A stretch of DNA of 64,000 bases from contig JACOUO010000011.1 in NCBI GenBank assembly GCA_016177845.1, forward strand, positions 128,326 through 192,325, read 5' to 3'. The notes under the pieces were generated by a model. The model saw nothing but the letters and a program-made list of their open reading frames with translations. It was not told the origin of the DNA and ran no database searches. This document shows, piece after piece, positions 2,341-29,723 of this stretch; the first letter of the stretch is position 1; every line of letters begins with the position of its first letter. This stretch comes from Deltaproteobacteria bacterium. Its GTDB lineage: Bacteria > Desulfobacterota > GWC2-55-46. The translations under genes were made by a program, and so were the position numbers.

Positions 2341-2345
2341 TTGTT

Positions 2346-4411: not shown

Positions 4412-4427
4412 TTTCCTCCTACTGGGA

Positions 4428-5357
4428 TCAGATAGCGCTCAATCTGAGTTCTGCGTTAAAGGAAAAAAGCCATTTAAGGCAGGAGATGCTTCTTTTTATT
4501 TTTTGGGCTGAGGTATTTCTTTCTGAAGGCTTCAGGATAAAGACGGCTGCGCCGCGTATAACCCTGATGATCTGGTGTAGGAAAACGATGAAAAGATAAG
4601 TGAACTGCGCGGCCCTGCCGTGGTGTTTTCTCCAGTACTGGATGTTTGCTTTCTGCATTTCGATATAAAACTTAATTGGCGCGTTTGCCGAGCTTGAGCC
4701 CCCGAAGTGGATTGCTTTGGCATTCGGATAAAAGACATTGCGCCAGCCTGCGTCTCGAAACCTTTTGCACCAGTCCTTATCCTCCGCGTAGAAAAAGAAT
4801 CTTTCATCCAGAAGGCCCACCTGGCTGAGAGCCTTGCGCCTTACTATCATAAAGCAGCCGCTCAGCACGTCCACATCACGGGTTTTGTCATGCGGGAAAA
4901 AAGTCAAACCCCTGAATACCCTCTCAAAACCGAGGGCTGACAGAAAACTCGAAACTATCGTTGGAAATCTCCTGCAGGTCCTCTGCAGTGTCATATCCTG
5001 ATTTAAGACCTTTGGGCCCAGCACGCCTATTGACGGTTGGGCCTCCATAAAAGCGATCATGTCCTCAAGGCATTTTTCAAGCACGATTACATCAGAGTTA
5101 ATAAGGCATATGTATTTTCCGAGACTGTTCCTGATGCCAATGTTGTTGGCTTTGGCAAAACCAAGGTTGCTGTTATTCTCAATCAGTTTTACAGCAGGAA
5201 AGAATCTTTTTACCGCCTGTTGTGAGCCGTCGGTAGATAAATTATCAACTACTATGATCTCCGCTTTAACTTTGTCTGTCTTCGCGTAGATGGAACTGAG
5301 GCAATCCATAAGGAATTTTTTTGCGTTCCAGCTGACTATCACAATAGAGAGATCCAT
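4428..5357 (-). CDS. Family 2 glycosyltransferase
   Basis: 309 aa. The N-terminus MDLSIVIVSWNAKKFL...IIVVDNLSTDGS and ...YAEDKDWCKR are typical of GT2. Confidence 0.8.
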   Translation of the reverse strand: MDLSIVIVSWNAKKFLMDCLSSIYAKTDKVKAEIIVVDNLSTDGSQQAVKRFFPAVKLIENNSNLGFAKANNIGIRNSLGKYICLINSDVIVLEKCLEDMIAFMEAQPSIGVLGPKVLNQDMTLQRTCRRFPTIVSSFLSALGFERVFRGLTFFPHDKTRDVDVLSGCFMIVRRKALSQVGLLDERFFFYAEDKDWCKRFRDAGWRNVFYPNAKAIHFGGSSSANAPIKFYIEMQKANIQYWRKHHGRAAQFTYLFIVFLHQIIRVIRGAAVFILKPSERNTSAQKIKRSISCLKWLFSFNAELRLSAI

Positions 5358-6667
5358 CAGCTCTGTGCCTGCGCAGCAACCATCTGCTCGGCTGATTTTT
5401 TTACTCTTGCAGCCTTATCGGTTATAGCCCTGGATACTGATATCAGGGCTATAAGCATGTAGAATATGACCTTTATCTGATCCCAATATGACACGCCCAT
5501 GAACGAGATTATGTGAACAAAGAGTGAAGCGCCCAGGCCCCACATGACTTTTTGCATGGCAGGTGTCTTTTTAAGAGATTTGACAGCCTTGCCGACTGAT
5601 TGAAAAGAATACGAGAGTATTGCTATGAACAGGGCAAGGGTTATCATGCCTCCGTCAACTCCGACCCTTACGAACTGGTTTGTAACATCAAAAAGGTAAT
5701 ACCCCCAGCTGCCGGTGGATTGGACGCCGACAAGCCACCATTCACCGACCCTTTTTATGAACTGGTCGACAAGGTGAAACCTGTGATAGGCGGTTGAGGC
5801 TCCAAAGACTTTTATCTTCATTATAAGCGACCAGACAGGCGCTTTCATAACTATGTGCAGAAATATGAGCGTAAAGACAAGGCCCCATCTGAAAAGCCTC
5901 ATTTGATTTCTGAAGTGCCACATGGTAAGAGCGAAAAAGCCCGCGGCATAGGCGAGGGCAGGGCCGCTTGATGACGAGGTGAGCATTATAAATGTAGCCG
6001 AGATAATGCCTGAGATCATTAAAAAACTGCCGTAGCCTTTCATGTGCCTTAAGTAATAAAACATTGGCACAAGCGCAGCCCCGAAGCTGCCTGCCGTAAT
6101 CGGGTGTCCGAACGCGCCCTGACAGCGCAGCTTCCCATCGCGAATAGGCGTGAATTCAGGCACTCCGCCGAATACGAAAAACGGGTTTCTCCCGGTCCTC
6201 CACTCAATGACCATAGCAATTGCAACAGGAATGCTTATTATCGCAAGGGTCTTTACCACCCAGGCTATGTCATCATAGTCCCTTACGAGAAATCTGACGA
6301 GAAAGTAAATCCCTATAATATCGAATGAGATGCCGAGCCTGTTTATGAACGCGTCCCCGGTGCGCCAAAGCAGGGTATAGGCGACTACGCCTGAGATTAC
6401 ATACCATATCATCACCTTATCTATTTTGTTGAGAGTGATATGGTACTCTGACCTAGTTATTACCCGCAGCCAGCCGAACAGGACAAGAATCCTCAAGATA
6501 TAGAAATCCAGCGAGGCTATCAGTATCCTCTGCTGCATGGGCATAAAAACCACAGCAAACATCAGAGGCACTATCGCAGCCCTTCTCGGCAGTAACAGCA
6601 TGAGAAGTCCTGAAAACAGCGTAAAAGCAAGCGCTGCAGGGTGTATCGGTATTATGTAATGGTCCAT
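5357..6667 (-). CDS. Polytopic membrane protein, O-antigen ligase/Wzy-like (PEP-CTERM-locus 'O-glycosylation ligase'-like)
   Basis: 436 aa with at least 10 predicted TM helices and a large loop containing RNPFFVFGG...RCQGAFGHPITAGSFGAAL, reminiscent of Wzy_C / O-antigen ligase families. Its position inside the EPS locus fits a polymerase/ligase. It could alternatively be a divergent exosortase-associated membrane protein. Confidence 0.5.
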   Translation of the reverse strand: MDHYIIPIHPAALAFTLFSGLLMLLLPRRAAIVPLMFAVVFMPMQQRILIASLDFYILRILVLFGWLRVITRSEYHITLNKIDKVMIWYVISGVVAYTLLWRTGDAFINRLGISFDIIGIYFLVRFLVRDYDDIAWVVKTLAIISIPVAIAMVIEWRTGRNPFFVFGGVPEFTPIRDGKLRCQGAFGHPITAGSFGAALVPMFYYLRHMKGYGSFLMISGIISATFIMLTSSSSGPALAYAAGFFALTMWHFRNQMRLFRWGLVFTLIFLHIVMKAPVWSLIMKIKVFGASTAYHRFHLVDQFIKRVGEWWLVGVQSTGSWGYYLFDVTNQFVRVGVDGGMITLALFIAILSYSFQSVGKAVKSLKKTPAMQKVMWGLGASLFVHIISFMGVSYWDQIKVIFYMLIALISVSRAITDKAARVKKSAEQMVAAQAQS

Positions 6668-6678
6668 TTTTTTCCTGA

Positions 6679-7719
6679 TTACGCTAGGTATCTGTAGAAA
6701 AGCCCGCCAAGTATCCTGTTTGAAAATACAGGCATTTTTTTAAGCATGCCGCTTGCCAGCCGGTTCAGTGCGCTTCCTTCTCTCTTGAGTTTCTCTCTTC
6801 TCTCAGGTATGAATACATACCCCATCTTTATCTTTTCCGCGCCCCATCTTGATTTATATTCCATAAGCCCTGTATTACCGGAAAAAGTCCTGCCAAAATC
6901 AAATTGCCTGAAGCCGCAATTAACTGATGATTCTATCGCTTTCCACATAAGGAGCTGGTTTGGCCCAACATTTATGAACTCAGGGTCTGAAGCGCCGAAC
7001 TTATAGTATGCGGTGTCCTTGTATTTCAAAAGCACTATGCCAGCAAGGTTCCTGGAATCCTTTGTGGCAAGGAGCACAGAGGCCATGTCCCTGGGATTGA
7101 GGACCTCCCAGATGTTCCTGAAAAACCTGAAAGGCTGAACAGGCACCCCTTGTTTTCTGCGGGTCTTGAGGTGCAACTCGTAGAACGCGCGCATGTGCTC
7201 AAGTGATGTGCCTTCAACGATCTCAATTCCGTTCTTCTGTGCTTTTTTTATGGGGCGCTGAATGCAATCCTTATGCAGCGAGCGTAGTAAGGCTTCTGTA
7301 CGGCAGCCAAGCTTAAGAACAAAATTGAAGTAGTCGTCCTCCTGATTCCGTTCAATTCCGTCAAGCCTGTATGCTCTAAGCTCCAGTGATTTTACGCCTC
7401 GCTTTTTCCGCTCGGATTCAAGCTCTGCCATAAGAGCATTGAATTCATCAGGGCCCGAAACGAGTGGATCGCAGCAGTCTGAAAATGGATATGAGATAAA
7501 CCTCTTGCCTGAGATCAGGCTCGAAGCAAGCACAAGCGGAACAGCGCTTATGATTTTTCCATCGGCTTCGCTGACAAAATAATCAGTTTTAAACCCATAA
7601 GTCTTCTCGATTACCTCATGCCAAGCCCTGTGATGATATACAGTGCCAAGGGGATGGTTTTCGACAAATGAATTCCAGTTGTCCTCTTGGATGGAGTTTA
7701 TGTCTAAGAGTGAGAACAT
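6679..7719 (-). CDS. FemAB-family protein, PEP-CTERM system-associated type (GNAT-fold aminoacyl/acyl transferase-like)
   Basis: 346 aa, MFSLLDINSIQEDNWNSFVENHPLGTVYHHRAWHEVIEKTYGF..., the canonical N-terminus of the FemAB-like proteins found specifically in PEP-CTERM/XrtA loci (TIGR03019-like). Confidence 0.75.
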   Translation of the reverse strand: MFSLLDINSIQEDNWNSFVENHPLGTVYHHRAWHEVIEKTYGFKTDYFVSEADGKIISAVPLVLASSLISGKRFISYPFSDCCDPLVSGPDEFNALMAELESERKKRGVKSLELRAYRLDGIERNQEDDYFNFVLKLGCRTEALLRSLHKDCIQRPIKKAQKNGIEIVEGTSLEHMRAFYELHLKTRRKQGVPVQPFRFFRNIWEVLNPRDMASVLLATKDSRNLAGIVLLKYKDTAYYKFGASDPEFINVGPNQLLMWKAIESSVNCGFRQFDFGRTFSGNTGLMEYKSRWGAEKIKMGYVFIPERREKLKREGSALNRLASGMLKKMPVFSNRILGGLFYRYLA

Positions 7720-9033
7720 TTAAAAATTCAACAGCCTTCTTACGAAATCACCGAAGTTGATGGAATCAACATCAGAGGAGATGGTAAAGGCGCTTGCCGC
7801 TCCGTCAGGCCATCTCCATAAACGGAGCAGGGGAAAGGTGGAATTATCGATTGATTCGAGGAGAGGGAGCTTGTCTTCTTCCCTGAAAATCTCAAATCCT
7901 CGAATGAAGAGGGTCTCTTTAACCTCGTTTTTGGCGCGCTGAACAAAAAAACCTTCGTTAACGAGGAAATGCTCCAGACTTTCCGATGCCTTTTCAGAAA
8001 TGTTTATCATATGTTTTGAAGGATTATCAGATTCGAAAATGATTTCATTCTCAGCGGTCCAGTCAATGGCAGCTATCCTGTAGGTCTTGAAAAAGTATGG
8101 CCCTGAGCCGTCATTATTTGATTTAACAAGGATAGTTGACGAGGCAGGAGCGGATATTTTTATGCTTGATATTCCAGCTTTTTTTTGAAGCGCCCATTTT
8201 GACCGGCTTCTCATCAGCCACCATTCTGATATCTCATTAAGTCCGGCAACCCATACTTTGGCCCTGTTTTTTCCGGTCTCTTCGAGAGTTTCTTTTATGG
8301 AGCTTCTGATGTACCGGAATCTTTCAGGATGGAAAAGAAGGTGGAACAATTCGCCGCGTTCGTGTATGTCCTTGAAGATTCGTCTCCAGATATTTGTGAT
8401 ATCGGAATTGTTCTTAATCCTCAATCTCTCGTAAATCATCTCATCATCAGGCGCGGTGATAGGTATGTCGATGAGCCTGTCTATAAATCTCGGCACTGAA
8501 ACCGAGGAGCTTGCATCAAGGATTTTGTAGATATGTCCGAGCTTTTTCAGATGGTTCCGGCTATGTTTGTCAGTACCGATGTTTTTTTCCCACCTAATTA
8601 CATTATTGCTGGTCCAGACATACGGGCTTGAGACAAGAGCGTCTATCGTGTGAGTATTATAACTCAGGTACGGACACCTGAACCCCCGAACAGGCATCCC
8701 GTATTTCTCAAAATTCTCAAAACTTCGCCTGATTATCTCTATCTGCTCATCCCTGTTTTTCATCTTCAGGTTGGTATGAAAAAAACCATGCGCCGCGAAC
8801 TCATGGCCGTTCTTGAATTGTTTAATGAAATTCAGATGTTTATCAAGAAGGCTTGCCGTTATGCAGAAAGTCACCTTAGGTTTTGTCCCGTTGAACTCTT
8901 TTTCAAGATAGGACATCATCTCCGCGAATCTTCTCTTCCCGAATGTATACCTCCAAATTATCTGAGCGGAACGTTCCAAAGCATGGAGCGTGCCTTTGGT
9001 CTCAATAATATGTTTTAAGAATTGTTTGAGCAA
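7720..9033 (-). CDS. Polysaccharide deacetylase family protein, PEP-CTERM-locus subfamily (with an extra C-terminal domain)
   Basis: 437 aa. The region KVTFCITASLLDKHLNFIKQFKNGHEFAAHGFFH...FRCPYLSY matches the NodB-like deacetylase domain with a divergent first motif, as seen in TIGR03006-like proteins. A ~170-aa C-terminal extension is present. Confidence 0.7.
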   Translation of the reverse strand: MLKQFLKHIIETKGTLHALERSAQIIWRYTFGKRRFAEMMSYLEKEFNGTKPKVTFCITASLLDKHLNFIKQFKNGHEFAAHGFFHTNLKMKNRDEQIEIIRRSFENFEKYGMPVRGFRCPYLSYNTHTIDALVSSPYVWTSNNVIRWEKNIGTDKHSRNHLKKLGHIYKILDASSSVSVPRFIDRLIDIPITAPDDEMIYERLRIKNNSDITNIWRRIFKDIHERGELFHLLFHPERFRYIRSSIKETLEETGKNRAKVWVAGLNEISEWWLMRSRSKWALQKKAGISSIKISAPASSTILVKSNNDGSGPYFFKTYRIAAIDWTAENEIIFESDNPSKHMINISEKASESLEHFLVNEGFFVQRAKNEVKETLFIRGFEIFREEDKLPLLESIDNSTFPLLRLWRWPDGAASAFTISSDVDSINFGDFVRRLLNF

Positions 9034-10229
9034 GTTTGCCGCTCTGCAATGAAGTTGGCAATTGCGTCAGAGATGCGCTCCTGCTGCTCAGAGGTAAGGT
9101 CAGGGAACATAGGCAGAGATATGATTTCCTTTGTGACTTTTTCCGTTACGGGCAAGTCGCCATGAGTATAGCCAAAGTGCGCGTAAGCCTTCTGAAGATG
9201 CAGGGGGATTGGATAATGCAGGCCTGTTGAGAGGTCAATACCTGAAAGCTGTTTCTGTAAATTATCCCTGTCCTGTACGCGTACCACATAAAGGTGGTAC
9301 ACAGCCTTCGACCATGAAGGCTCATAGGGCGTCACTACATTTCCGCCCGCGCTCAGCCGCTCGTTGTAAAAAAGGGCGTTTGCCCTTCTTCTGGAGTTCC
9401 AGTTGTCAAGGTGTTTCAGTTTTACTGAAAGGATGCCTGCCTGAATGGCGTCAAGCCTGCCGTTGTAGCCTTCGATCTCGTGGTAGTATTTCGTGACCTG
9501 TCCATGGTCCCTGATCATTCTTATTTTTTTTGCTATTTCTTCGTTATTGGTCGTTACCGCGCCGCCTTCGCCGAAAGCGCCAAGATTTTTACCGGGATAA
9601 AAGCTGAAGGCCGAGGCAATCCCGACAGAGCCGGCCTTTTTCCACTCATTTTCTCTTCTTGAAAAATAGCTCGCGCCGTGTGCCTGGCAAGCGTCCTCTA
9701 TAACGAGCAGGTTGTATTTTTCCGCTAAATCCATGATAGAGTCCATATCAGCCATTTGTCCGTAGAGATGCACCGGGATTATCGCGGCAACAAGTTTTCC
9801 TGTCCTCAGGTCTACAAGCCTGCCTGTCTGATGATCGGTCTCGCACTTCGTCTCAAAATACTCCTTCAGTATTTCAGGCGACAGGTTATATGTTCGCTCG
9901 TCAATATCTACGAAAACAGGCGTGGCGCCGCACTGCGTGATAGCCTCGGTCGTTGCTATAAAGGTATTTGCAACTGTCACTACCGCATCCCCTTTATTGA
10001 TGCCTGCGGCTAAGAGTGCAAAACGAAGGGCGTCAGTGCCGCTGCCTACCCCGATGCAGTAAGCCGTGCCGCAGTAGTCGGCAAATTCTTTTTCGAACTC
10101 CTCAACAACAGGTCCGCCTATGAATTTACCTGTCCTTAACGCCTCTCTGAAGACAGAGACGAACTTTTCCTCTAACTTCTTATGAGGTTCTATGAGGTCC
10201 AAAAACGGTATGGATTTTGAATTACTCAT
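9015..10229 (-). CDS. DegT/DnrJ/EryC1/StrS-family PLP-dependent sugar aminotransferase (WbpE/PglE-like)
   Basis: 404 aa with an aminotransferase class-V-like fold. A conserved Lys-containing region (SFYPGKNLGAFGEGGAV) is present. Confidence 0.85.
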   Translation of the reverse strand: MSNSKSIPFLDLIEPHKKLEEKFVSVFREALRTGKFIGGPVVEEFEKEFADYCGTAYCIGVGSGTDALRFALLAAGINKGDAVVTVANTFIATTEAITQCGATPVFVDIDERTYNLSPEILKEYFETKCETDHQTGRLVDLRTGKLVAAIIPVHLYGQMADMDSIMDLAEKYNLLVIEDACQAHGASYFSRRENEWKKAGSVGIASAFSFYPGKNLGAFGEGGAVTTNNEEIAKKIRMIRDHGQVTKYYHEIEGYNGRLDAIQAGILSVKLKHLDNWNSRRRANALFYNERLSAGGNVVTPYEPSWSKAVYHLYVVRVQDRDNLQKQLSGIDLSTGLHYPIPLHLQKAYAHFGYTHGDLPVTEKVTKEIISLPMFPDLTSEQQERISDAIANFIAERQTCSNNS

Positions 10230-10734
10230 TTGTTATGCTCCTTAAGATTTTAGCGGGATTTCCTGCGACAATTGAATTGGCAGGCACATCTTTTGTCACA
10301 GTGCTGCCTGCTCCTACTATTGCGTTCTCGCCTATTGTAATATTGCTTAGTATAGTCGCCCCGGAGCCTATCGAAGCCCCTTTTTTTACGACAGTCCTTT
10401 CAACTTTCCAGTCATCATCTGTCTTAAGCTCACCGTCTTTGTTAGTAGCGCGGGGATATGTGTCATTTATGAATGTTACATTATGTCCGATAAAAACATT
10501 GTCCTCCACTATGACGCCTTCGCATATGAAAGTATGGCTTGATATCTTGCAGTTATTGCCTATGTCCGCATTTTTTTGGATCTCGACAAACGCCCCGACC
10601 TTTGAGTTAGCTCCTATGGAGCAGCCGTAGAGGTTTATAAATTTCCCCAGCTTTACATTCTCACCAAGGCTGACATCATCCGAGACACTTATCTGGTTTA
10701 TCTCCTCACCGTTCGGCATGGCACTGGATTTCAT
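10222..10734 (-). CDS. Hexapeptide-repeat (LbH) sugar N-acetyltransferase (WbpD/PglD-like)
   Basis: 170 aa with repeated [LIV]G-x-x-x-x hexapeptide motifs throughout. It overlaps the aminotransferase and oxidoreductase genes. Confidence 0.8.
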   Translation of the reverse strand: MKSSAMPNGEEINQISVSDDVSLGENVKLGKFINLYGCSIGANSKVGAFVEIQKNADIGNNCKISSHTFICEGVIVEDNVFIGHNVTFINDTYPRATNKDGELKTDDDWKVERTVVKKGASIGSGATILSNITIGENAIVGAGSTVTKDVPANSIVAGNPAKILRSITNE

Positions 10735-11732
10735 AGTTTCACCATCCTCCCGTTGTTTTTAAGGGATTCGTCGCATGCCTCAAGCATCCGTACTACCCTA
10801 AGCCCGGCATGCCCGTTGTTGAACGGCTCCTCATTTTTATTTATGCAGTCGACAAAATACTGCGTCTCAAGCTTCAGGGCCTCTATCTGGTCAACCTTCG
10901 GGGCCCACATGTCCCCTGAGCGGTAATTGACCAGCAGGTTATATATGCCCTCGCTGTTCGTTATCTCCACGCCCCTGTCATAGACCTTTATCTTTTCATC
11001 CGCGTCCACATCGTTCCACATGAGCATCTTTTTCTCTCCGCCTATGAGCGTAGTCCTGAGCTTGACAGGGGAGAGCCAGTTCACATTGAGATGCGCGATT
11101 ATGTTCTTGGAAAAATACACCATTATGTACGCTATATCTTCCTTAGAGTTGATGTGGGCCTTGCCGGAGGCCGCAACTGCGTCAGGCTTCTCCTTGATCA
11201 GATAATCCATTATTGAGAAATCGTGCGGCGCAAGGTCCCATATGACATTCACATCATGCTGGAACAAGCCGAGGTTGACCCTTGTTGAGTCATAGTAATA
11301 AAGCTCTCCGAGGACATCATCCTCTATTATCTGCTTGATCTTTCTTACCGCGCTGGTAAACAGAAATGTGTGGTCAACCATGATTTTCAGATTTTTTTTC
11401 CCGGCAATTTCTATAAGTTCGGCTGCCTGTTTTGTGTTTGAAGTAAAAGGCTTTTCTACAAAGACATGCTTTCCGTTAAGGAGCGCCTGTTTTGCAAGCT
11501 CATAGTGAGTTGAAACGGGTGTGATGACCGTAACAAGATCGATATCAGGTGATTGCACTATTTCTGCGCTGTTCTCAGTTATCAGCAGGTTGGGATAATT
11601 TTTTCTTGCCCTCTGAGCTGAGAGCGGGTTCTTGTCACATATCGCGGCAACTTCCGCCCCATCAATCATATTGAAGTTCCTGACTATGTTCGGACCCCAG
11701 TAACCGTACCCAATTACGCCGACACGGATCAT
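10731..11732 (-). CDS. Gfo/Idh/MocA-family NAD(P)-dependent sugar oxidoreductase (WbpB-like)
   Basis: 333 aa with an N-terminal Rossmann motif MIRVGVIGYGYWGPN and ...EKP motif. Together with the two neighbouring genes it forms the classical trio for making a 2,3-diacetamido / 2-acetamido-3-amino UDP-sugar. Confidence 0.8.
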   Translation of the reverse strand: MIRVGVIGYGYWGPNIVRNFNMIDGAEVAAICDKNPLSAQRARKNYPNLLITENSAEIVQSPDIDLVTVITPVSTHYELAKQALLNGKHVFVEKPFTSNTKQAAELIEIAGKKNLKIMVDHTFLFTSAVRKIKQIIEDDVLGELYYYDSTRVNLGLFQHDVNVIWDLAPHDFSIMDYLIKEKPDAVAASGKAHINSKEDIAYIMVYFSKNIIAHLNVNWLSPVKLRTTLIGGEKKMLMWNDVDADEKIKVYDRGVEITNSEGIYNLLVNYRSGDMWAPKVDQIEALKLETQYFVDCINKNEEPFNNGHAGLRVVRMLEACDESLKNNGRMVKL

Positions 11733-11769
11733 TTTTTACCTCTCTGTTGGTTCATTCAATTGATGATTA

Positions 11770-12939
11770 TCAGTATGCGCCCTTACTCGAAAGCATTGAG
11801 AACGGGGTAAGGAAAAGGAGTTTTATGTCGAGCCAGATGGACCATTCATCGATGTACCTGATGTCCATCCTTACCATGTCGTTGAATGTCGTAGAACTTC
11901 TTCCCTTAACCTGCCACAGCCCTGTTATGCCCGGCTTTACATCAAGAATTCGCCTGCGGTGCCATGCCATGTAGTTTTCAAGTTCGTAAGGAATGGGAGG
12001 GCGGGGGCCTACAAGCGACATGTCACCTTTAATAACATTGAAGAACTGGGGCAGTTCGTCTAAGCTCGTTTTCCTTAGAATTCTGCCAAGGGGAGTTATC
12101 CTGGGGTCGTCTTTTATTTTATATATTTTTTCTTCAGCGCCGTGATTGCCGCCAAGGCTGTATTCCTTCTGCTCACGAATCAGTTTTTTAATGTATTCAG
12201 TATGTATTTTCTCACTGCTGCCTACATACATAGACCTGAATTTCAGGAACACGAAAGGCTTGCCGTATTCTCCTATCCTTGTCTGCCTGAAAAAAACAGG
12301 CCCTTTTGAAGTGAGTTTGATGATGACAGGGACAGCAATGAAAAAGGGTGAAAAGATTATCAGCCCGATAAAAGCGCCGAATACATCCATTACCCTTTTT
12401 ATAAGAAAAGAGTTTTTTTTATTTTCTTTTTTTTTTAACAGGTCAGGATAAAGCTTAAAGTCCAGCGGCAGTGATTTATCCCCTCCGCTTTCTTCAGGGA
12501 ACAGGTGAAACGATATTTTAAGCCTGTTAAAGAGAGTTGAGCTGAGCGCGGGCAAATTGGTAAGCGCGGTGAATATCTTCTGCTTGATCGGTTCTGCCTC
12601 ATCTGTTTTTACATCGGTGAATATTACTCCTATTATTCCGTTGCATTTGTACCAGCCTTTGATATCAACTTCCCTTGTCGTCGTGTTTATGGCGTAACCG
12701 ATGCCTTTGATGATCTCTTTTGCCGAAGGCTCATAAAGGATGTTCTCAAGGTCCAGCAGCATGAGCAGGAACGACTTTCCTGACCTTTCGGCTCTTTTTC
12801 TTTCCAGGTACACCATTTCATGAAAGTAATCCTCTACATAAAGGCCGTTGTCAATATCCTGCAGAAAATCAGTGCTGTGAAAATGGAGAGAACCCTGCTT
12901 TCTGAACTTGTTCCGGTATTTGAAAAGAAAATTTTTCAT
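11770..12939 (-). CDS. Polyprenyl-phosphate glycosyl-phosphotransferase (PglC-type monotopic 'bacterial sugar transferase'). It is fused to an N-terminal degenerate GGDEF-like domain
   Basis: 389 aa. The C-terminal ~200 aa have one re-entrant hydrophobic segment followed by ...SLVGPRPP...PGITGLWQV, as in PF02397. The N-terminal ~165 aa align to the GGDEF fold: ...LERKRAERSGKSFLLMLLDLENI...REVDIKGWYKCNGIIGVIF. The GG[DE]EF motif is replaced by YKCNG, but an RxxD motif (REVD) is retained at the I-site position. Confidence 0.8.
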   Translation of the reverse strand: MKNFLFKYRNKFRKQGSLHFHSTDFLQDIDNGLYVEDYFHEMVYLERKRAERSGKSFLLMLLDLENILYEPSAKEIIKGIGYAINTTTREVDIKGWYKCNGIIGVIFTDVKTDEAEPIKQKIFTALTNLPALSSTLFNRLKISFHLFPEESGGDKSLPLDFKLYPDLLKKKENKKNSFLIKRVMDVFGAFIGLIIFSPFFIAVPVIIKLTSKGPVFFRQTRIGEYGKPFVFLKFRSMYVGSSEKIHTEYIKKLIREQKEYSLGGNHGAEEKIYKIKDDPRITPLGRILRKTSLDELPQFFNVIKGDMSLVGPRPPIPYELENYMAWHRRRILDVKPGITGLWQVKGRSSTTFNDMVRMDIRYIDEWSIWLDIKLLFLTPFSMLSSKGAY

Positions 12940-12992
12940 GGTTCATTCCCGTTTTGATTGAAGCGGACAGAGTTCAGATGAGCTTGGATGGG

Positions 12993-13000
12993 CTACCGCC
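12993..13000 (-). promoter_or_regulatory. ops-like element (GGCGGTAG) in the 5' leader of the priming sugar-transferase gene
   Basis: Reverse complement of 12993-13000 is GGCGGTAG, the core of the ops/JUMPstart element recognised by RfaH-type NusG paralogs. It lies ~50 nt upstream of the sugar-transferase start codon and immediately downstream of the NusG-paralog gene. Confidence 0.4.
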
Positions 13001-13090
13001 GTTCAGGTGCATTTAAACCCGCCTGAGAGAAAATTCAGTTGTGCTGTTAAAGAGAACAATAGGGACTTTTTAAATAAGCCTTATTCAAAC

Positions 13091-13588
13091 TTAAATGCGT
13101 GAAAGCATTCCTGCGTCAACCACCACGCGGATATTTATGGCCTTAAGAAGAATACTGACCCTCTCAATGCCTTGCATCTCTTTTTCAAATATTGCTTCAA
13201 AGCCCTCAAAAGGCCCGCCTTTTATGAGCACCCGGTCACCGGGCTCGAAATTCTGCCGGATCGTGAGAATGCCTTTATCAAGCCTTGAGACAATTGAGCC
13301 GATGATATTGTCAGGCACCGCTGACGGCCCCTGGTCATTGCCAAGGACATTTTTTATTCCTCTTGTATAGCGTATCAAGTGATAATCCCTTAATCTGTCG
13401 AATTTAACGAAGACATAACTGGGGAAAAGAGGAGAGATAAGTTCAGTCAGTTTTCTCCTGTAGAATTTACGCTCCATTATCTTCGGGTTCAGTATCTGAA
13501 AACCCGCGTTATTAAGCTTGTATGAGACCGCATCCTCATTTCTCGGTTTTGTATAGACCAAATACCAGTTTGAATCTGAGCGCTCCAT
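13091..13588 (-). CDS. NusG-family paralog (RfaH/UpxY-like operon-specific transcription antiterminator)
   Basis: 165 aa. The N-terminal NGN domain reads WYLVYTKPRNEDAVSYKL...VFVKF. The C-terminal KOW-like region reads FEPGDRVLIKGGPFEGFEAIF. It is embedded inside the polysaccharide operon with a 355-bp untranslated region upstream. Confidence 0.85.
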   Translation of the reverse strand: MERSDSNWYLVYTKPRNEDAVSYKLNNAGFQILNPKIMERKFYRRKLTELISPLFPSYVFVKFDRLRDYHLIRYTRGIKNVLGNDQGPSAVPDNIIGSIVSRLDKGILTIRQNFEPGDRVLIKGGPFEGFEAIFEKEMQGIERVSILLKAINIRVVVDAGMLSRI

Positions 13589-13943
13589 TCGAAAATACGC
13601 CTCCTATGGCTTTTAAAGAAAACTGTAAATGCATCGCAAGGATCTCCTGAGCGGAAATCCCATTTCAGCGCGACTGGCCTTTCAGATTTGTAGAGTTGAG
13701 TAGTTTATATCGGCATACTCTGTTGTTTGAACCGGTTGGTCTGAAAAGTCCCTGGCTCTTTATGCATTTGCCGCAAGCGCAGGAAAGAGCAGCGGTCTGG
13801 ACAATGTGGAATGACAATATTCTGATTTTTTACATTCTGCCGAAACGTGCAAGAGGCCCATTGGTATCAGGTATATGGGTTTATTCCCTGAGTGTATTTG
13901 GGATTGCATTGAAGGACTCCTTTTCCTGTGGTGCCGGTTTTTT

Positions 13944-14951
13944 TTAGTAAGAGTACTTCATCATATGCTCTGCGGCTCCGTTTAGGACTATTCCCATAAG
14001 ATTGTGCTTCGGGAGTGAATTGATAGCCTTTTTCACAAGGTCCTTTGGCGTCTTTCCAGCCCTTACTATGAGCATGAGAGCGTCAACGGATTTCGAAAGT
14101 ATATTCATATCGACAAGAGGCAATATCGGTGGAGAATCCACAATCACATAATCAAAATCCTCTTTAACGGAATCGAGCACTGTCTTCATGTGCGGTGAAT
14201 CGAGAAGGACCGAAGAATTTTTAACGCTGCAACGGGCAGGAAGAAAATAGAGATTGGTGCCTTCAAGCCTGTTTATTGCCGAGCGCAGGTCTATCTCGCC
14301 TTTAATCACATCGACAAGTCCGTAAAGCCTTCCCATATCGAGGTAGTTTGAAGAAATGGAAGGGTTCCTGAAATCTCCCTCGATAAGAAGGACTTTTTTC
14401 TTGAATTCTGTTGCAATCACATAAGAGAGGTTAAGTGCAGTCATTGTCTTTCCCTCTCCCTTTACCGCGCTTGTTATCGCGAATGTCTTATATGAATTTT
14501 TCAGGCTTATCTGTTCTATTTTGGTGTAGAGTATCCTGTATTTTTCAGCTATCATCGGGTCGGTGCTTTCCATCACCAGAAGCGGCTGCTTGAACGATAT
14601 CTTATCTTTGAACGCGCCGACCTCCGTGTATTCCTCGAATATATCCTTGCCGGCATTTACTGAATTCAGGTCAACGACTTTCTCCGAAGCCTGAGGAATA
14701 TTATCCCTGCGGCCTCGGAGCGTAGAGTCGTAGGCGCTCCTTTTGGCCGGATCCATCAGCGTCTCAAAGATGCTTTCGAGCTGCGCCAGTTTTTCCTTCC
14801 TCTCTTCTGCCGTATACAGGGAGTAGACCGCCATGTTCCCTTCGCTGTAGAGGCCCCGGGCCTTCCTGTATGCGTCCTCTATTTCTTTCGGGTTGGCACC
14901 CTGGACTATCTGAAGGATCTCGTAGTAATTCTTTTCATTGTTTTGCATCAT
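13944..14951 (-). CDS. BY-kinase-like (Wzc C-terminal-like) P-loop ATPase with an N-terminal J-domain-like segment lacking HPD
   Basis: Walker A AITSAVKGEGKTMTALN, Walker A'/B VLLIEGD...YVIVDSPP and C-terminal tail ...MKYSY. The N-terminus YYEILQIVQGANPKEIEDAYRKARGLYSEGN...LMDPAKRSAYD aligns to a DnaJ J-domain, but the HPD tripeptide is replaced by SEG. The six-frame ORF extends to 15110; start chosen at ATGATG (14951), which has an AAGGCGAG SD and avoids overlapping the upstream gene. Confidence 0.7.
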   Translation of the reverse strand: MMQNNEKNYYEILQIVQGANPKEIEDAYRKARGLYSEGNMAVYSLYTAEERKEKLAQLESIFETLMDPAKRSAYDSTLRGRRDNIPQASEKVVDLNSVNAGKDIFEEYTEVGAFKDKISFKQPLLVMESTDPMIAEKYRILYTKIEQISLKNSYKTFAITSAVKGEGKTMTALNLSYVIATEFKKKVLLIEGDFRNPSISSNYLDMGRLYGLVDVIKGEIDLRSAINRLEGTNLYFLPARCSVKNSSVLLDSPHMKTVLDSVKEDFDYVIVDSPPILPLVDMNILSKSVDALMLIVRAGKTPKDLVKKAINSLPKHNLMGIVLNGAAEHMMKYSY

Positions 14952-14962
14952 TTTTGCTCGCC

Positions 14963-16003
14963 TTAAAATTGGTTTATGGTTGAAAAGCCGTTGGATCCCT
15001 TGTTCTTGTTCAGGAGATTGTTCAGGCATGACTCTATGCCCCTTGCCGCCCCTGAGCTTGAGTAATGTATGGTTAAAGGCTTTCTGTTGCGTATTGAATC
15101 GCTCACGCATTCTTCATAAGAGACTGACCCTAAGTATCCTATGTCTATCCCGAAGTAGTCAGAGCATGCCCTTTTGATGGAAGAGCCGATCTCTTTGTCC
15201 TCGTTTTTTTTCATCTGGTTCATGACCATTGAAATATTTGTGTTTGATACATGCTCCCTTAGAACGCGGCCCTGCTCGGGGTCAAGGGTGCTGAGCTGGT
15301 TGAGTATGTCTGATACTGTTTTTACGCGCTGGGACCATTTTTCGCTGAAAACTTTTTGAAGCAGGTCTTTGAGTTTTCCGTCATCCTGCGCGTCAGCAAG
15401 GGTCTTTATCTTTCTCAGAAAAAGGCATTTAAGGAACCTGTAATTATTCTCTATCGTGGTCGGTTCAGGGGTAGAGAGTATTATCCCTTCATTCGATATC
15501 AGGAACATGTCCAGTAAGGTTGAGGATGTGCCAGGCCCGATATCAAGGATGGCGTAGTCATAGTCTACCTTCCTGAGCGCGTCCTTAAGCCTTGCCACCT
15601 TATCCGGCTTTATGTCTGCCACATCGAGTGAGTCCTTTGCGCCGCTTATAAGGTCAAGGTTCGGAATAGGGGTCTTTACTGCAAGAGATTGCAGGTCAGG
15701 CACTTCTTCTTTCAAAAAGCTTGAGAGCGCTGTCCTGCCGCCATCAACCCCGAGGAATGTGTGCAAGTTTGCCGCACCGAGGTCAGCGTCTATCAGAAGT
15801 ACTCTTTTCTGATTTTTTGAGAGAAGTATCCCAAGGTTCGTGGCAAGAAGCGTCTTACCGACCCCTCCTTTGCCGCCGCCTACAGCCCATATTTTAGTAC
15901 CGTATATTGATGGATACTCCATGGGCGTGTAGGGAACGTGCTGGGTATCCTCGGCTATGTCATAGCTTTTGAATAGTCTTTTAAACCAATTGAAGTTAAG
16001 CAC
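14963..16003 (-). CDS. MinD/ParA/FlhG-family P-loop ATPase
   Basis: 346 aa with a deviant Walker A VGGGKGGVGKTLLATNLG, and LLIDADLGAANL. A second SIMIBI ATPase sits next to the BY-kinase-like gene inside the EPS operon. Confidence 0.75.
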   Translation of the reverse strand: MLNFNWFKRLFKSYDIAEDTQHVPYTPMEYPSIYGTKIWAVGGGKGGVGKTLLATNLGILLSKNQKRVLLIDADLGAANLHTFLGVDGGRTALSSFLKEEVPDLQSLAVKTPIPNLDLISGAKDSLDVADIKPDKVARLKDALRKVDYDYAILDIGPGTSSTLLDMFLISNEGIILSTPEPTTIENNYRFLKCLFLRKIKTLADAQDDGKLKDLLQKVFSEKWSQRVKTVSDILNQLSTLDPEQGRVLREHVSNTNISMVMNQMKKNEDKEIGSSIKRACSDYFGIDIGYLGSVSYEECVSDSIRNRKPLTIHYSSSGAARGIESCLNNLLNKNKGSNGFSTINQF

Positions 16004-17531
16004 TTTCTTTCCTTCCTTTTATGACTCTGAGTTTGTTTTCAGGCCTCTGCTGATCCTTAAACGGAAAGATAGGGATGCTCGTAAGCACAGGCGACATAAT
16101 GACGCCTTCAAAATCCTCAGGTTTTCTGAAGGCAGGGTTGAGCACTTCGAAGAGAAGCACTAATCCTGCTCCTAAAGCCACACCGCCAAGCACGCCGTAA
16201 AGCGTGATGTATCCTTTATTGGGCCAGTCAGGCACCTGGGGGAGATATGCGTAATCGATAACCCTGAAGCGTTCGCCTTTCTGCCTTTTCTCAAGATTTT
16301 CAGCAAGCCTTGCGTTGAGTTTCTTTTCAAGGAGCGCCTGGTAATTGGCAAGCGATATCCTGTGGTCCCTTAGTATGTCGGCCTGCTTCTGTTCATTTGC
16401 AGGGGTATTGTCAATGCGTCTTTCATAGTCCTTTATCTGGCGCCTGATCTCGCTCTCGCGCTGGCGAAGGGCGGCAAGCTGCGATTTAACTGTCGAAAGC
16501 TCAACATAAACTGTCGGATTACGAAGTTCATTCTCATCGGTCTTTCCGTTCTGTCCAAGCTGCGTCTCAAGGTCTTTAATGCGCCTTTTAGTTATGATGA
16601 CATCAGGATATGACTCCTTGTACATCGAGAGCAGGGAAACGAGTTCGCCTCTTAATTTTTCAAGTTCAGCGAGTTGAGGGTTTATCGGCCTGCCTGTTGC
16701 GGCTGTAGGAGCGTAAGCCATCTGCTCCTGAAGCAGTATCCTCCTGTCATCTGTGCTCTTGATAGATGCCGAGACTGTCTGAAGCTCCATCTGAAGCCTG
16801 TCAAGGGTCCTCAGGTTTGCGTCAAGCTGTTCGGGAAGTCCTCCCATGTGAGTCTCTTTAAATCCCTTTATCTGCCTCTCAAGCTGTTCAAGTTCGGTCT
16901 TTGCCTTCTCAAGCTCGCTGCCGAGGAATTCGGAAGTGCCCTCAGCGTATTGTTCCCTTGCCTTAAGGTTCTCCTCTATGAAAAGGGAGGCGAGCTTGTT
17001 TGTGACCTGCATGGTTGTCTTTGGGTCTGTGCCTGTATAGTAGATGGAGAAGGCGTTGCCGCCGCTGCTGGAGCCTTTTTTGCTGCCTGTCGTGACTTCG
17101 GCGGCGACCTCAAATTTTATGTCGCTGCGCATCTGATCTATTATCACATCGCTTGTCGCAGCCACCTGTGCTTCACCGTGAGCGACCCTGTTGTAGAGCA
17201 TGCCAAGTCTTGTCGCAATGCCCGGAGATGCGTTCTCATACAGATTGAATTCTTTAATTATTTGCTCAAGCCTTGTCCTGCTCAGTATCTGCTGGCTCAA
17301 GACCGTCAGCCTCTGGCTGAACGGGGTCCTGTCGGTCTGGGGGACATACTCCTCGGGGACCTGCTGGTCTTCAGCCAATATGAGAGTGCTTGAGCTGTAA
17401 TATTCAGGCAATTTGAAGCTTACAAGAAGGCCTATGAGGCCGCCTATGATAATCGGGATTATCAAAAGCCATTTACGGTAATAAAAGATGGCCAGCTGAT
17501 CCAGAAGCGTCTTATTCTTAGTCTCTTCCAT
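15996..17531 (-). CDS. Polysaccharide chain-length determinant protein (Wzz/PCP-like, PEP-CTERM-locus subfamily)
   Basis: 511 aa with an N-terminal TM helix, a long coiled-coil periplasmic region and a C-terminal TM helix (YITLYGVLGGVALGAGLVLLFEVL). This is the architecture of polysaccharide co-polymerases (TIGR03007-like). Confidence 0.8.
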   Translation of the reverse strand: MEETKNKTLLDQLAIFYYRKWLLIIPIIIGGLIGLLVSFKLPEYYSSSTLILAEDQQVPEEYVPQTDRTPFSQRLTVLSQQILSRTRLEQIIKEFNLYENASPGIATRLGMLYNRVAHGEAQVAATSDVIIDQMRSDIKFEVAAEVTTGSKKGSSSGGNAFSIYYTGTDPKTTMQVTNKLASLFIEENLKAREQYAEGTSEFLGSELEKAKTELEQLERQIKGFKETHMGGLPEQLDANLRTLDRLQMELQTVSASIKSTDDRRILLQEQMAYAPTAATGRPINPQLAELEKLRGELVSLLSMYKESYPDVIITKRRIKDLETQLGQNGKTDENELRNPTVYVELSTVKSQLAALRQRESEIRRQIKDYERRIDNTPANEQKQADILRDHRISLANYQALLEKKLNARLAENLEKRQKGERFRVIDYAYLPQVPDWPNKGYITLYGVLGGVALGAGLVLLFEVLNPAFRKPEDFEGVIMSPVLTSIPIFPFKDQQRPENKLRVIKGRKESA

Positions 17532-17534
17532 TAA

Positions 17535-18692
17535 TTAAAACCTCCACTCCGGTCCTGTGAATGTCACATTCACAAATACCTGGTTTCTTGTGAGGCCGGT
17601 CCCGAAATTATCCTTTGGCCACTGTTGAAAATGCTGGACGCCCGCGCCGAATTTCATCCATCTCTTTGCCTGCCAGGTGGCCTGCGCGGAAGTGTCATAA
17701 GAGTTCATATCGACCCTTCCCGAAGGCTCGGTGCGGCTTTTGGCAAGCCCGCCTGTTACGGACAGGCTTATATCCCTGCTTAGCGTATGCGACAGTGTGA
17801 AGGAGAGCCTGTCGTTTATGTTTATCTCATCGGTCAGGCCTGTGGGGTTTGTCACAGCCCTTGAGTACAAAATAGCAATGGTTGAGTCCCTTAAGGTTTT
17901 TTCCAATCCTGCTGTAGCTGTCAGGAAGTAATCGTCCTGACCGCCGTCAAGCCCGCTGGCATAGACAACCCCTGCCGAGAGATCTACCTTCAGGGTCGGA
18001 TCGACTGTTTCCGCGATGCTGAAGAAAAGCGCGTGGCTTTCTATATCTTTATTGCCGTTGCTGTCAAAGCTGAAGTTAGTAAACTTGTAAGTGACGCTTG
18101 CCCTTCCTGCAGGGTTGTATTTATATCCTCCGGTCAATGATGCTGAATCTGTCCTCGTGTCGACAAGGGACTGTTCCTCGAAATCGAGATTAGTATCCCT
18201 GAGTGTGAGCCCGATGTCTATTTTCGGCCCAAGCTGATGGCCGATATTAAAAAAAACAGTGTTGGCTGAAATATCCGTTCTCACGACAAGTATCCCCGTT
18301 TCTGTCGCACGCAATGAGTCCTTTGTAAAATAATATGTGTCTCCCAGGCCTATCCTTGTCTTGTTCGACAGTTCATATCTTGCTCCGAGTGTGGCCTTAT
18401 GAGAGACGCTGTCGAGGTCAGTATCCTGGCTGTGATAGTCGGCATCAAGCCTGTAATAGGCGTCGATATCGTATCTTATTCCCTCTTTGGATGCCCTTAC
18501 CGCGGGGCTGACGGTTGAGATGAAATCACTGTCAGAGTCCTCGCTGTCGCTCCTGAATCTCACATTGCTGTCATACCGTTCCTCAAGGGAGAGGGAAGGG
18601 ATGATGCTGAAATTCTGGCTGCGGGCGTCATTAGCGGAACTGAGGGCAATAAACAGGGCGCAGAGCGCGATAAGTCCTCTTCTATGGTACAA
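17535..18692 (-). CDS. Outer-membrane beta-barrel protein, PEP-CTERM-system-associated type
   Basis: 385 aa with a signal peptide (LCALFIALSSANDARSQ), alternating amphipathic beta-strand pattern and a C-terminal ...GPEWRF aromatic terminus typical of OM beta-barrels. Its position between the chain-length determinant and the exporter matches TIGR03016-like proteins. Confidence 0.6.
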   Translation of the reverse strand: MYHRRGLIALCALFIALSSANDARSQNFSIIPSLSLEERYDSNVRFRSDSEDSDSDFISTVSPAVRASKEGIRYDIDAYYRLDADYHSQDTDLDSVSHKATLGARYELSNKTRIGLGDTYYFTKDSLRATETGILVVRTDISANTVFFNIGHQLGPKIDIGLTLRDTNLDFEEQSLVDTRTDSASLTGGYKYNPAGRASVTYKFTNFSFDSNGNKDIESHALFFSIAETVDPTLKVDLSAGVVYASGLDGGQDDYFLTATAGLEKTLRDSTIAILYSRAVTNPTGLTDEININDRLSFTLSHTLSRDISLSVTGGLAKSRTEPSGRVDMNSYDTSAQATWQAKRWMKFGAGVQHFQQWPKDNFGTGLTRNQVFVNVTFTGPEWRF

Positions 18693-19419
18693 AGATTGTA
18701 TCTCCCGGTTTAAGCACCAAGTTCCTGTCGGTTTTGCTGTCAGTGTCGATTATGTCATCGAAGCGCACGCTTATGCGCTCAGGCTTTGCGGATTTATCCA
18801 ACTTCTCCCTGATAAGTATCAGTTTGTTTTTGGATGCGAACGGGTTGAACCCGCCTGCCAGCGCGATTGCCTGTAGAAGGGTTGTCTTTCTCATCACTGT
18901 ATATGAACCGGGATTTATGACCTCTCCGAGGACATAGATCCTGTAGCTTTTTACTTCCTGTACTATTACCGAAGCCACTACAGTTTCCTGGTATTCCTTT
19001 AGACTCTCGATAATTGAATCACGGAGTTGCGAAGGGGTAAGCCCGGCTGCTTTCATGTCTCCGACAAGCGGAAGCGATATCATGCCGTCAGGGCGCACCA
19101 CGACGGTCTTTGACAATTCGGCATTCCTCCATACGGAGATCTCAAGCACATCTTCTATGCCGATAAGATATTCCGGGTCCTGCGCGACTGCTGCGGTTTT
19201 AGTGGCGGGCTTATCTGCGGTAGCTTCCTGCGCCGTAGAGGTTTTCTGGACGATTTTTTCAGCCGCCGCGTTCTTTACTGCGGCGTCTTTTTTAAGTGTC
19301 TTATCCGATGCTGTTGAGGGCTGCGGAATTAAAATGCCAAGTCCAAACAGAAAAAGTGCGGCTGCCAAAACACCTTTGAAACCCTGCGATTCTCTCATTA
19401 TCCCGTCCTCCATACTCAA
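18682..19419 (-). CDS. Polysaccharide export protein (Wza/OPX-like short form, PEP-CTERM subfamily)
   Basis: 245 aa with a signal peptide and the Poly_export motif region EYLIGIEDVLEISVWRN...PDGMISLPLVGDMKAAGLTPSQL, plus an SLBB-like domain. Confidence 0.8.
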   Translation of the reverse strand: MSMEDGIMRESQGFKGVLAAALFLFGLGILIPQPSTASDKTLKKDAAVKNAAAEKIVQKTSTAQEATADKPATKTAAVAQDPEYLIGIEDVLEISVWRNAELSKTVVVRPDGMISLPLVGDMKAAGLTPSQLRDSIIESLKEYQETVVASVIVQEVKSYRIYVLGEVINPGSYTVMRKTTLLQAIALAGGFNPFASKNKLILIREKLDKSAKPERISVRFDDIIDTDSKTDRNLVLKPGDTIFVP

Positions 19420-19430
19420 AGCTGATTTTT

Positions 19431-19823
19431 TTAGAGAAGCCTGAGCCCGGCTGAGACTATAGACCTCGAAACTTTTTTAGCCCACACGGCGCGGGCTGAC
19501 CTTTCCATATTGAGCGACTCTATGCATACCTTAAAGATCGTATCGACATCTATTGAGCTTCCGCTGTAGATAATGCCTGCGCCTTCTTCAGAGAAATCCG
19601 TAGTCTTTGCCTTTACCTCAGAGCCTTCTATGTAGAACTTAAGTTCAAGCTCCTTGCGTACCCTGCTTTTATTCCTTCTTTCGGAAAAAATATATCCGCA
19701 GTGAGGGCAGATGATGCGGCCCTCAGCAAAGGAGATGTAGAAAGCTTTATAGCAGGCAGGGCAGATTCTAAGTCGCATTCTTCTTGCCGATTGTTTGATT
19801 TGGTTTCTGCTGTTAGCGTTCAA
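19431..19823 (-). CDS. Zinc-ribbon + PilZ domain protein (putative c-di-GMP receptor)
   Basis: 130 aa. The N-terminus CPACYKAF...CPHCGYIF is a C4 zinc ribbon. PilZ motifs RNKSR (RxxxR) and DFSEEGAG ((D/N)xSxxG) are present. It is the last gene of the EPS operon, adjacent to the T2SS. Confidence 0.75.
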   Translation of the reverse strand: MNANSRNQIKQSARRMRLRICPACYKAFYISFAEGRIICPHCGYIFSERRNKSRVRKELELKFYIEGSEVKAKTTDFSEEGAGIIYSGSSIDVDTIFKVCIESLNMERSARAVWAKKVSRSIVSAGLRLL

Positions 19824-21230: not shown

Positions 21231-21245
21231 TTTATGTTTACTGTC

Positions 21246-22796: not shown

Positions 22797-22800
22797 CTGC

Positions 22801-24780: not shown

Positions 24781-24932
24781 GTTCCTATCTTCCGTTGCAA
24801 TCGTGATGGTTAGAACAGATTTTATAAGAACCGGTAAAGTGAAGGCGACTGGAGCGGCGTAAAACTCACCATGCGGATATGATCTACAAAGTAATATTAT
24901 AACATACAATTTCTGAAACGCTGGTGCCATGA

Positions 24933-25811: not shown

Positions 25812-25881
25812 CCTGATGATGTGAGGAGGTGTCCGGTGAGCGACCGGCCCTGATTGGAAGGTTTTTAAAAAATAGCCTGAG

Positions 25882-27229: not shown

Positions 27230-27246
27230 CTCAGAACGGAAGACAA

Positions 27247-29722: not shown

Positions 29723-29723
29723 G

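Follow-up and report, generated by a model that had tools for sequence, protein, structure and literature searches.

A phosphoglycosyl transferase from a deltaproteobacterial exopolysaccharide operon carries a truncated, degenerate GGDEF-like domain with a conserved I-site: a candidate cyclic di-GMP receptor

The stretch of DNA analyzed here, called the window in the following, comprises 64,000 nucleotides of a Deltaproteobacteria bacterium (assembly GCA_016177845.1, contig JACOUO010000011.1) and contains an operon for exopolysaccharide (EPS) synthesis. One gene of this operon encodes a protein of 389 amino acids (aa) in which a phosphoglycosyl transferase (PGT) follows an N-terminal domain (N-domain) related to the GGDEF domain of diguanylate cyclases. 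A first-pass annotation of the DNA had suggested that cyclic di-GMP (c-di-GMP), bound at a retained allosteric I-site of this domain, may gate the initiation of EPS synthesis. The identical NCBI entry, on a contig of 768,599 bp, is named only "MAG: sugar transferase [Deltaproteobacteria bacterium]" (MAG, metagenome-assembled genome), and the same 389-aa protein is present with unchanged neighbors in two metagenome assemblies. The features of the gene are listed below, with the residues of the protein and the basis of each assignment; AF2 indicates AlphaFold2 models, pLDDT and pTM their confidence scores (predicted local distance difference test and predicted template modeling).

11770–12939, minus strand: whole gene, GGDEF-fold/PGT fusion, 389 aa (list of open reading frames [ORFs]; full-length AF2 model with pLDDT 81.5 and pTM 0.71)
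12490–12852, minus strand: core of the N-domain, residues 30–150, a truncated GGDEF fold with the order alpha1-beta1-alpha2-beta2-beta3-alpha3-beta4 (Foldseek, profile-PDB alignments, AF2)
12781–12804, minus strand: alpha1 motif E46-R-K-R-A-E-R52-S53, with R52 equivalent to WspR R198 (HHalign, conservation)
12664–12675, minus strand: R89-E-V-D92, an RxxD motif at the primary I-site position, WspR R242/D245 (HHalign, profile alignments)
12649–12657, minus strand: G95-W96-Y97, nearly invariant, between the I-site and the former active site (A-site) (conservation, HHalign)
12634–12648, minus strand: K98-C-N-G-I102, the degenerate equivalent of GG[DE]EF (alignments)
12577–12579, minus strand: K121 on alpha3, candidate third I-site residue (alignment with DosC, less certain here; mapping inferred)
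12418–12489, minus strand: linker, residues 151–174, with a conserved L-Y-P-D-L motif; its first half has low confidence in the model
12310–12417, minus strand: re-entrant membrane helix, residues 175–210, broken at S197-P198 (hydropathy; helix-break-helix 175–195/197–210 in AF2)
11791–12399, minus strand: PF02397 PGT domain, residues 181–383 (Pfam, E 1.8e-67), with D294-E295 at 12055–12060 and P312-R-P at 11998–12006

The C-terminal half is beyond doubt a small, PglC-like monotopic PGT, as had been proposed. It scored 226.8 bits against PF02397 (Bac_transf), compared to a gathering cutoff of 27, and the D294-E295 dyad and the P312-R-P motif were invariant among 81 homologs. When the full-length AF2 model was compared with the PDB by Foldseek, the best matches were the PglC structures 8e37 and 8g1n (E 1.6e-12), followed by WbaP and then only by GGDEF domains. 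Residues 178–207, interrupted at S197-P198, were the sole hydrophobic stretch, without an additional transmembrane bundle. Both ends of the re-entrant helix of PglC are on the cytoplasmic side, so that the N-terminal ~175 residues of the fusion should be cytoplasmic, too. As judged from its sequence, the transferase would move a sugar-1-phosphate from a nucleoside diphosphate sugar onto undecaprenyl phosphate. Its earlier description as "TIGR03013-like" has to be abandoned: TIGR03013 (XrtA/PEP-CTERM sugar transferase, EpsB_2) reached 144.4 bits against a cutoff of 393.35, in the C-terminal part of the model only, and was surpassed by TIGR03025, the best NCBIfam match, which also stayed below its cutoff (285.8 against 295.55 bits) and likewise covered only the C-terminal part.

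The N-domain is almost certainly a highly divergent, truncated GGDEF derivative with a preserved I-site. Single-sequence searches of the PDB and Pfam with the N-domain gave no meaningful match; the relationship was exposed only by family profiles and structure prediction. On its own, the protein scored 12.5 bits against PF00990 (gathering score, 23.8; E 0.13) and 11.8 bits against TIGR00254 (cutoff, 37.4), and the NCBIfam SiaD, PleD, and GGDEF models also remained below their thresholds (E 0.036 to 0.15). The AF2 model of the N-domain core had a pLDDT of 82 to 91 with 14 homologs and of 89 to 94 with 81 homologs. In the Foldseek comparison of this model with the PDB, the top 50 matches were all GGDEF domains, each with a probability of 1.00 and with E values from 2.9e-6 to 5.8e-4. 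Likewise, every PDB match of the N-domain family profile with an E value of ≤1 was a GGDEF domain, and the alignments were collinear.

Scanning of 93 family members singly against Pfam found PF00990 as a weak match in 27 of them (best E 0.0017) and any other family in no more than two members each. Two proteins that are 54 to 55% identical to the full-length fusion passed the gathering score of PF00990, P0238 with 30.6 bits (E 3.5e-7) and P0270 with 24.8 bits. The protein from the window is thus outside the curated boundary of PF00990, yet the homology holds because these two close homologs are inside. The GGDEF relationship claimed by the first-pass annotation was borne out in this way, by the homologs and the structural matches, while the protein itself stayed below the profile threshold. 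The features of an active diguanylate cyclase are missing: KCNGI stands at the position of the signature, profile-PDB alignments revealed a 6-residue deletion across the guanine-binding loop FKxxNDxxGH, and the domain ends after beta4, without alpha4 and beta5.

Assignment of the I-site was based on an HHalign comparison of the N-domain family with WspR (E 0.0093), using a WspR sequence identical to the deposited chains, in which chain numbering is residue numbering. Equivalent positions were F39 and F185, R52 and R198, D63 and D209, R89 and R242, D92 and D245, W96 and R249, and Y97 and Y250, with K98-C-N-G101 opposite G251-G-E-E254. The REVD motif was also in register with the RxxD motifs of DosC (RSSD), the Idiomarina cyclase 5llw (RDTD), SiaD (REYD), and GcbC (HMMER), and it is located five residues ahead of the position equivalent to GG[DE]EF, as the initial description had stated. 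In shuffled N-domains, an RxxD motif occurred anywhere in 36% of the sequences and at the aligned position in only 0.29%. Loss of the catalytic signature had been recognized correctly, too, but the replacement given for it, YKCNG, was one residue out of register, the true equivalent being K98-C-N-G-I102. The residue in front of it, Y97, corresponds to the tyrosine preceding GG[DE]EF in true cyclases, and W96 takes the place of the arginine in R-Y-GGDEF.

WspR contains an intercalated c-di-GMP dimer that is held by R242 together with R198 from a neighboring GGDEF domain, and the R242A and R198A mutant proteins each purify without c-di-GMP (PMC2270323). Of the features that characterize a degenerate GGDEF receptor, the RxxD motif at the equivalent position and R52, the arginine completing the site, were both found. 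A third contact may be provided by K121, which is ≥90% conserved in the clade of the protein (81 sequences), while members from Acidobacteriota keep R/K125 instead. K121 aligned with the arginine of the "AER" motif of DosC, which we take to be the equivalent of PleD R390/WspR K273, by counting along the PleD sequence.

The N-domain belongs to a large family. A profile search identified at least 2,520 representatives of 50%-identity clusters at E ≤ 0.001, 1,610 of these at E ≤ 1e-10, and at least 530 species-representative genomes carry a member, mostly Acidobacteriota (Terriglobia) but also Nitrospirota and MAGs of the Deltaproteobacteria or Syntrophales type. The domain was fused to a PGT of ~380 to 400 aa in 78 of 80 retrieved loci, and the public names of these proteins are only "sugar transferase" or similar. 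For determination of the conservation, about 165 copies of the N-domain were aligned, with n = 164 per column. Within the RxxD motif, R89 was conserved in 161, E/D90 in 158, T91 in 155, and D92 in 161 copies; within the following GWY motif, the numbers were 163 for G95, 162 for W96, and 150 for Y97; and on alpha1, they were 163 for E46, 162 for R49, 160 for R52, and 150 for S53. The GG[DE]EF-equivalent positions 98 to 102 varied across the family (K/R/E, D/E/N, G/D/N, S/A, V). The same pattern was present in 77 species-level fused proteins from Acidobacteriota, Nitrospirota, and Deltaproteobacteria-type MAGs and in nine stand-alone copies. Because R89, D92, and R52 are near-invariant and positions 98 to 102 are variable, selection has kept exactly the residues of the bipartite I-site of WspR and PleD, and the I-site is the sole strongly conserved surface of the N-domain.

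Some members possess more than one copy of the domain. Tandem N-domains precede the PGT in P0014, P0023, and P0046, and both copies mostly retain both motifs. A stand-alone paralog exists in 8 of the 80 loci, either a few kilobases upstream of the fused gene or adjacent to it. Such a duplication with stand-alone copies would be expected of a domain that pairs with another copy of itself, without being a proof of pairing, and an interplay between N-domains is plausible given these variants. Complementary degeneration of the tandem copies would favor a cross-link between them; it was seen in one case only, domain 1 of P0046, which has no equivalent of R52, and was not decisive. The stand-alone paralogs, of ~170 to 215 aa, keep both I-site motifs; those in L011, L027, L032, L044, L046, L054, and L081 are encoded ~3 kb upstream of the fused PGT, and the one in L043 (positions 9926–10429) directly adjoins it.

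In Acidobacteriota loci (L046, positions 6973–9797, plus strand), the genes of the stand-alone N-domain and the fused PGT are separated by those of an ATP-grasp enzyme and an aspartate kinase with AA_kinase and ACT domains, and a FemAB-like gene follows the fused PGT; this arrangement hints at an EPS decorated with amino acids. A 905-aa protein composed of an aspartate kinase, the N-domain, and the PGT (P0029) was dropped as a true sensor fusion, since Acidobacteriota loci place the aspartate kinase gene directly upstream of the PGT and the product is probably a read-through.

The fused gene is part of the following EPS operon, given in the order of transcription.

19431–19823, minus strand: PilZ protein, first gene of the operon (PF07238, E 1.1e-6)
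within 385–19419, minus strand: Wza-like exporter, beta-barrel porin, Wzz (Pfam)
within 385–19419, minus strand, next: two ParA/BY-kinase-like ATPases (BY-kinase, bacterial tyrosine kinase), NusG paralog, PGT fusion (Pfam)
within 385–19419, minus strand, next: GFO oxidoreductase, hexapeptide acetyltransferase, DegT aminotransferase, polysaccharide deacetylase
within 385–19419, minus strand, last: FemAB-like protein, Wzy-like protein with 10 transmembrane segments, three glycosyltransferases, AsnB

The core of this operon is syntenic across phyla. Among 76 loci, GFO was present in 66, an AAA_31 ATPase in 64, Wzz in 62, the hexapeptide acetyltransferase in 58, the exporter and DegT in 57 each, and the NusG paralog in 48. 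The latter (PF02357, 165 aa; 13091–13588, minus strand) is encoded immediately upstream of the PGT in the window; in the 48 loci, its gene either immediately precedes that of the PGT or is the first gene, ~7.3 kb upstream. This suggests a dedicated antiterminator of the EPS operon, similar to RfaH or UpxY. One AAA_31 ATPase (13944–15110, minus strand) ends with ...KYSY and possesses an unusual N-terminal fusion to a DnaJ (J) domain. Since its ORF shares 148 nucleotides with the AAA_31 gene in front of it and the protein has only 334 aa in the public gene call, translation probably starts at an internal site. An ortholog of this ATPase is encoded directly upstream of the fused PGT in 64 of the 76 loci.

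Directly downstream of the PGT (9015–11732, minus strand), the products of the GFO/IDH/MocA, hexapeptide acetyltransferase, and DegT genes, conserved in 57 to 66 of the 76 loci, resemble the WbpB/WbpD/WbpE or WlbA/B/C enzymes. As inferred from these adjacent genes, the substrate of the PGT may be a 2,3-diacetamido sugar, a di-N-acetylated amino sugar. Three polytopic proteins with ~8 to 10 hydrophobic segments and no Pfam match are encoded at 5357–6667, 57362–58756, and 59495–61096 (all minus strand), and the first of these, inside the EPS operon, is a candidate for a Wzy-like polymerase. No Wzx-type flippase was found among the scanned ORFs of the window.

Next to the EPS operon, a type II secretion cluster occupies 20025–31623 on both strands, with a GspC-like PDZ protein, secretin, ATPase, and GspF on the minus strand and pseudopilins and GspJ/K/L on the plus strand. 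The "MshEN" match of its ATPase in Pfam was rejected as a c-di-GMP context because the N terminus of the protein does not contain the RLGxxLL-type binding motif. A LuxR/GerE-type helix-turn-helix regulator (25882–26523, minus strand), the N-terminal ~140 residues of which contain no Pfam domain, may control the transcription of the EPS locus; in 32 of the 76 loci, an ortholog is encoded ~8.5 kb upstream of the fused PGT and divergently oriented. Scans for promoters and terminators gave results at chance level.

By analogy with WspR and PleD, a mechanism can be proposed for the fusion. The catalytically dead N-domain would bind c-di-GMP at its kept I-site, probably as an intercalated dimer, with R89xxD92, K121 of alpha3, and R52 on alpha1 of a second N-domain as binding residues. 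Pairing of N-domains bridged by the ligand, or release of an auto-inhibitory contact, would then alter the oligomeric or active state of the transferase, and initiation of EPS synthesis, the first committed step of a Wza/Wzz-type pathway, would follow the cellular c-di-GMP level. That the N-domain binds c-di-GMP and regulates the PGT is a candidate function by analogy with known receptors, with a probability of roughly 0.55. The more specific model of a c-di-GMP dimer that cross-links two N-domains via RxxD and the alpha1 arginine and thereby switches the PGT between oligomeric states is tentative and may well be wrong in detail, albeit regulation of a PGT through dimerization has a precedent in EpsW-EpsZ (PMC12802240). 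Activation as the direction of the effect is assumed from other EPS systems.

Evaluation of this function needs to consider several points that weigh against it. The domain has been heavily remodeled, with the guanine-binding loop deleted, alpha4 and beta5 missing, and a tryptophan, W96, in place of an arginine, so that the geometry of the pocket may differ, and the clustering of R52, R89, D92, and K121 in space is a prediction from homology. The conserved RxxD and alpha1 arginines could be structural or could bind another partner. The protein from the window departs from the family consensus at T91V and R/K125A, changes common to its own subclade, which conserves K121. Within the 64-kb window, neither a GGDEF, EAL, or HD-GYP enzyme nor a c-di-GMP riboswitch was found. 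The PilZ protein had been cited as pointing to c-di-GMP as well. This gene is real, although it opens the operon and is not at its end, as had been thought. With intact RxxxR (RNKSR) and DxSxxG (DFSEEG) motifs, following an N-terminal CxxC..CxxC segment similar to a zinc ribbon, its product is apparently able to bind c-di-GMP. The gene recurred only in the closest relative, L003; phmmer identified it in 1 of 76 loci and the motif scan in 1 of 60. As a general partner of the family, PilZ was consequently rejected; being present in only one related locus, it is specific to this lineage and adds little support.

Alternatively, the N-domain may be a nucleotide-free scaffold derived from GGDEF, with the basic helix and the RETDxxGWY surface used for protein contacts, either in homodimerization of the PGT or in docking to the adjacent ParA/BY-kinase-like ATPase or to Wzz; regulation, if any, would then occur by tyrosine phosphorylation or complex assembly. 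Many degenerate GGDEF domains elsewhere are purely structural. Two tyrosines, Y97 and Y164 of the LYPDL motif, are invariant, and a gene for a BY-kinase-like AAA_31 ATPase is immediately upstream of the fused PGT in 64 of the 76 loci. In a comparable pair, the small PGT CapM is a phosphorylation target of the BY-kinase CapB1 and is activated by it, as cited in PMC12802240. A scaffold is nevertheless unlikely, since conservation does not affect a generic surface but exactly those three residues by which the I-site for c-di-GMP is defined in WspR and PleD, and a structural role poorly explains why the arginine and the aspartate of RxxD are ~98% invariant across phyla at an overall identity of ~35%.

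The pocket may also bind a ligand other than c-di-GMP, such as (p)ppGpp, GTP, cyclic GMP-AMP (cGAMP), another cyclic dinucleotide, or the UDP-sugar of the pathway, and EPS initiation would then be coupled to the nutritional state or to feedback. The PleD structures 9g85 and 9g86, with c-di-GMP and (p)ppGpp, were among the fold matches and indicate that GGDEF domains accommodate other guanine nucleotides, and Hypr-GGDEF enzymes of Deltaproteobacteria make cGAMP. W96 and the basic cluster R47/K48/R49/R52 have, moreover, remodeled the pocket. RxxD plus the alpha1 arginine, however, is the canonical clamp for a c-di-GMP dimer, the A-site, where GTP binds, is without its guanine- and phosphate-binding elements, and nothing in the analysis points to a specific alternative ligand, which makes this explanation improbable. 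That the N-domain is a non-regulatory evolutionary relic aiding the folding or membrane insertion of the PGT, as might be thought because small PGTs such as the 185-aa PglC function without such a domain and because the N-domain has neither annotation nor functional description, is very hard to reconcile with specific surface residues under extreme purifying selection in at least three phyla and with tandem duplication and stand-alone paralogs in the same loci, which are not expected of a relic.

Direct control of polysaccharide synthesis by c-di-GMP is well established only for the synthase-dependent systems for cellulose, alginate, Pel, and poly-N-acetylglucosamine, the post-translational cases described so far being all of the synthase-dependent type, and the review on c-di-GMP control of EPS that covers them never mentions Wzx, undecaprenyl, priming, or phosphoglycosyl (PMC8461298). 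Regulation of the Wzx/Wzy pathway at this level is incompletely understood, with CapB1-CapM and EpsW-EpsZ as the only cases at the level of the PGT (PMC12802240, from 2025). The 2024 census of the monotopic PGT superfamily contains no mention of GGDEF or c-di-GMP, and in the searchable full-text literature, which does not cover a 2021 census of PGT fusions that may list it, a PGT-GGDEF fusion is not described. Degenerate GGDEF domains as I-site receptors are already known from PelD and the GGDEF-like module of BcsE; what is new is the fusion partner, the type of pathway, and the truncated form of the domain, in a large family that has no annotation. Should the N-domain bind c-di-GMP and regulate the PGT, it would represent a widespread, previously unrecognized class of c-di-GMP receptors and the first direct second-messenger gate on the commitment of undecaprenyl phosphate in a Wzx/Wzy- or Wza/Wzz-type pathway. 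Control by a second messenger would reach the step that commits the scarce undecaprenyl phosphate, and it would do so in hundreds of species of Acidobacteriota, Nitrospirota, and Desulfobacterota, phyla that are abundant in soil and sediment and genetically hard to study. Censuses of c-di-GMP receptors would have to include this family with all of its clusters.

Among the known systems, WspR and PleD share both halves of the bridging site with the N-domain, residue for residue (R242/D245 as R89/D92 and R198 as R52). They are active enzymes, the catalysis of which is inhibited via the I-site, whereas the N-domain has no GG[DE]EF, guanine loop, or alpha4/beta5, and its presumed output is the fused transferase. 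The GIL/degenerate-GGDEF module of BcsE is likewise derived from GGDEF, non-catalytic, binds c-di-GMP at an I-site-like position, and regulates EPS synthesis (PMC8461298). In contrast to the fusion, BcsE is soluble and serves a synthase-dependent system as an accessory protein, belongs to the DUF2819/GIL family, and uses an RxGD motif; Pfam scans of the protein from the window and of the family members gave no GIL match.

PglC from Campylobacter resembles the C-terminal half, with 33 to 34% identity and a template modeling score of 0.75 to 0.79 on the protein from the window, and shares with it the re-entrant helix broken by Ser-Pro, the Asp-Glu dyad, and the PRP motif. With ~185 to 200 aa, PglC has no N-terminal extension, and this enzyme is not known to be regulated allosterically. 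The initiating PGT is itself the target of regulation in EpsW-EpsZ of Myxococcus xanthus and CapB1-CapM of Staphylococcus aureus, and in the case of EpsZ, the regulator promotes the active dimer (PMC12802240). These regulators, a phosphorylated response regulator and a tyrosine kinase, are separate proteins, however, and the PGT itself is not bound by a second messenger.

A similar logic is found in PelD of the Pel system of Pseudomonas aeruginosa, although PelD was not among the top 50 PDB matches of the N-domain model in Foldseek. Like the fusion, PelD contains a catalytically dead GGDEF fold with a kept RxxD motif, is anchored in the membrane, and is encoded in an EPS operon; it is a c-di-GMP receptor via this I-site, for which post-translational activation of polysaccharide synthesis has been proposed (PMC8461298). 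PelD differs in that it is a polytopic protein of its own, contains a GAF domain, serves a synthase-dependent pathway, and recruits the glycosyltransferase PelF. In the protein described here, a domain truncated after beta4 and without the guanine loop is instead fused directly to the initiating PGT of a Wza/Wzz-type pathway.

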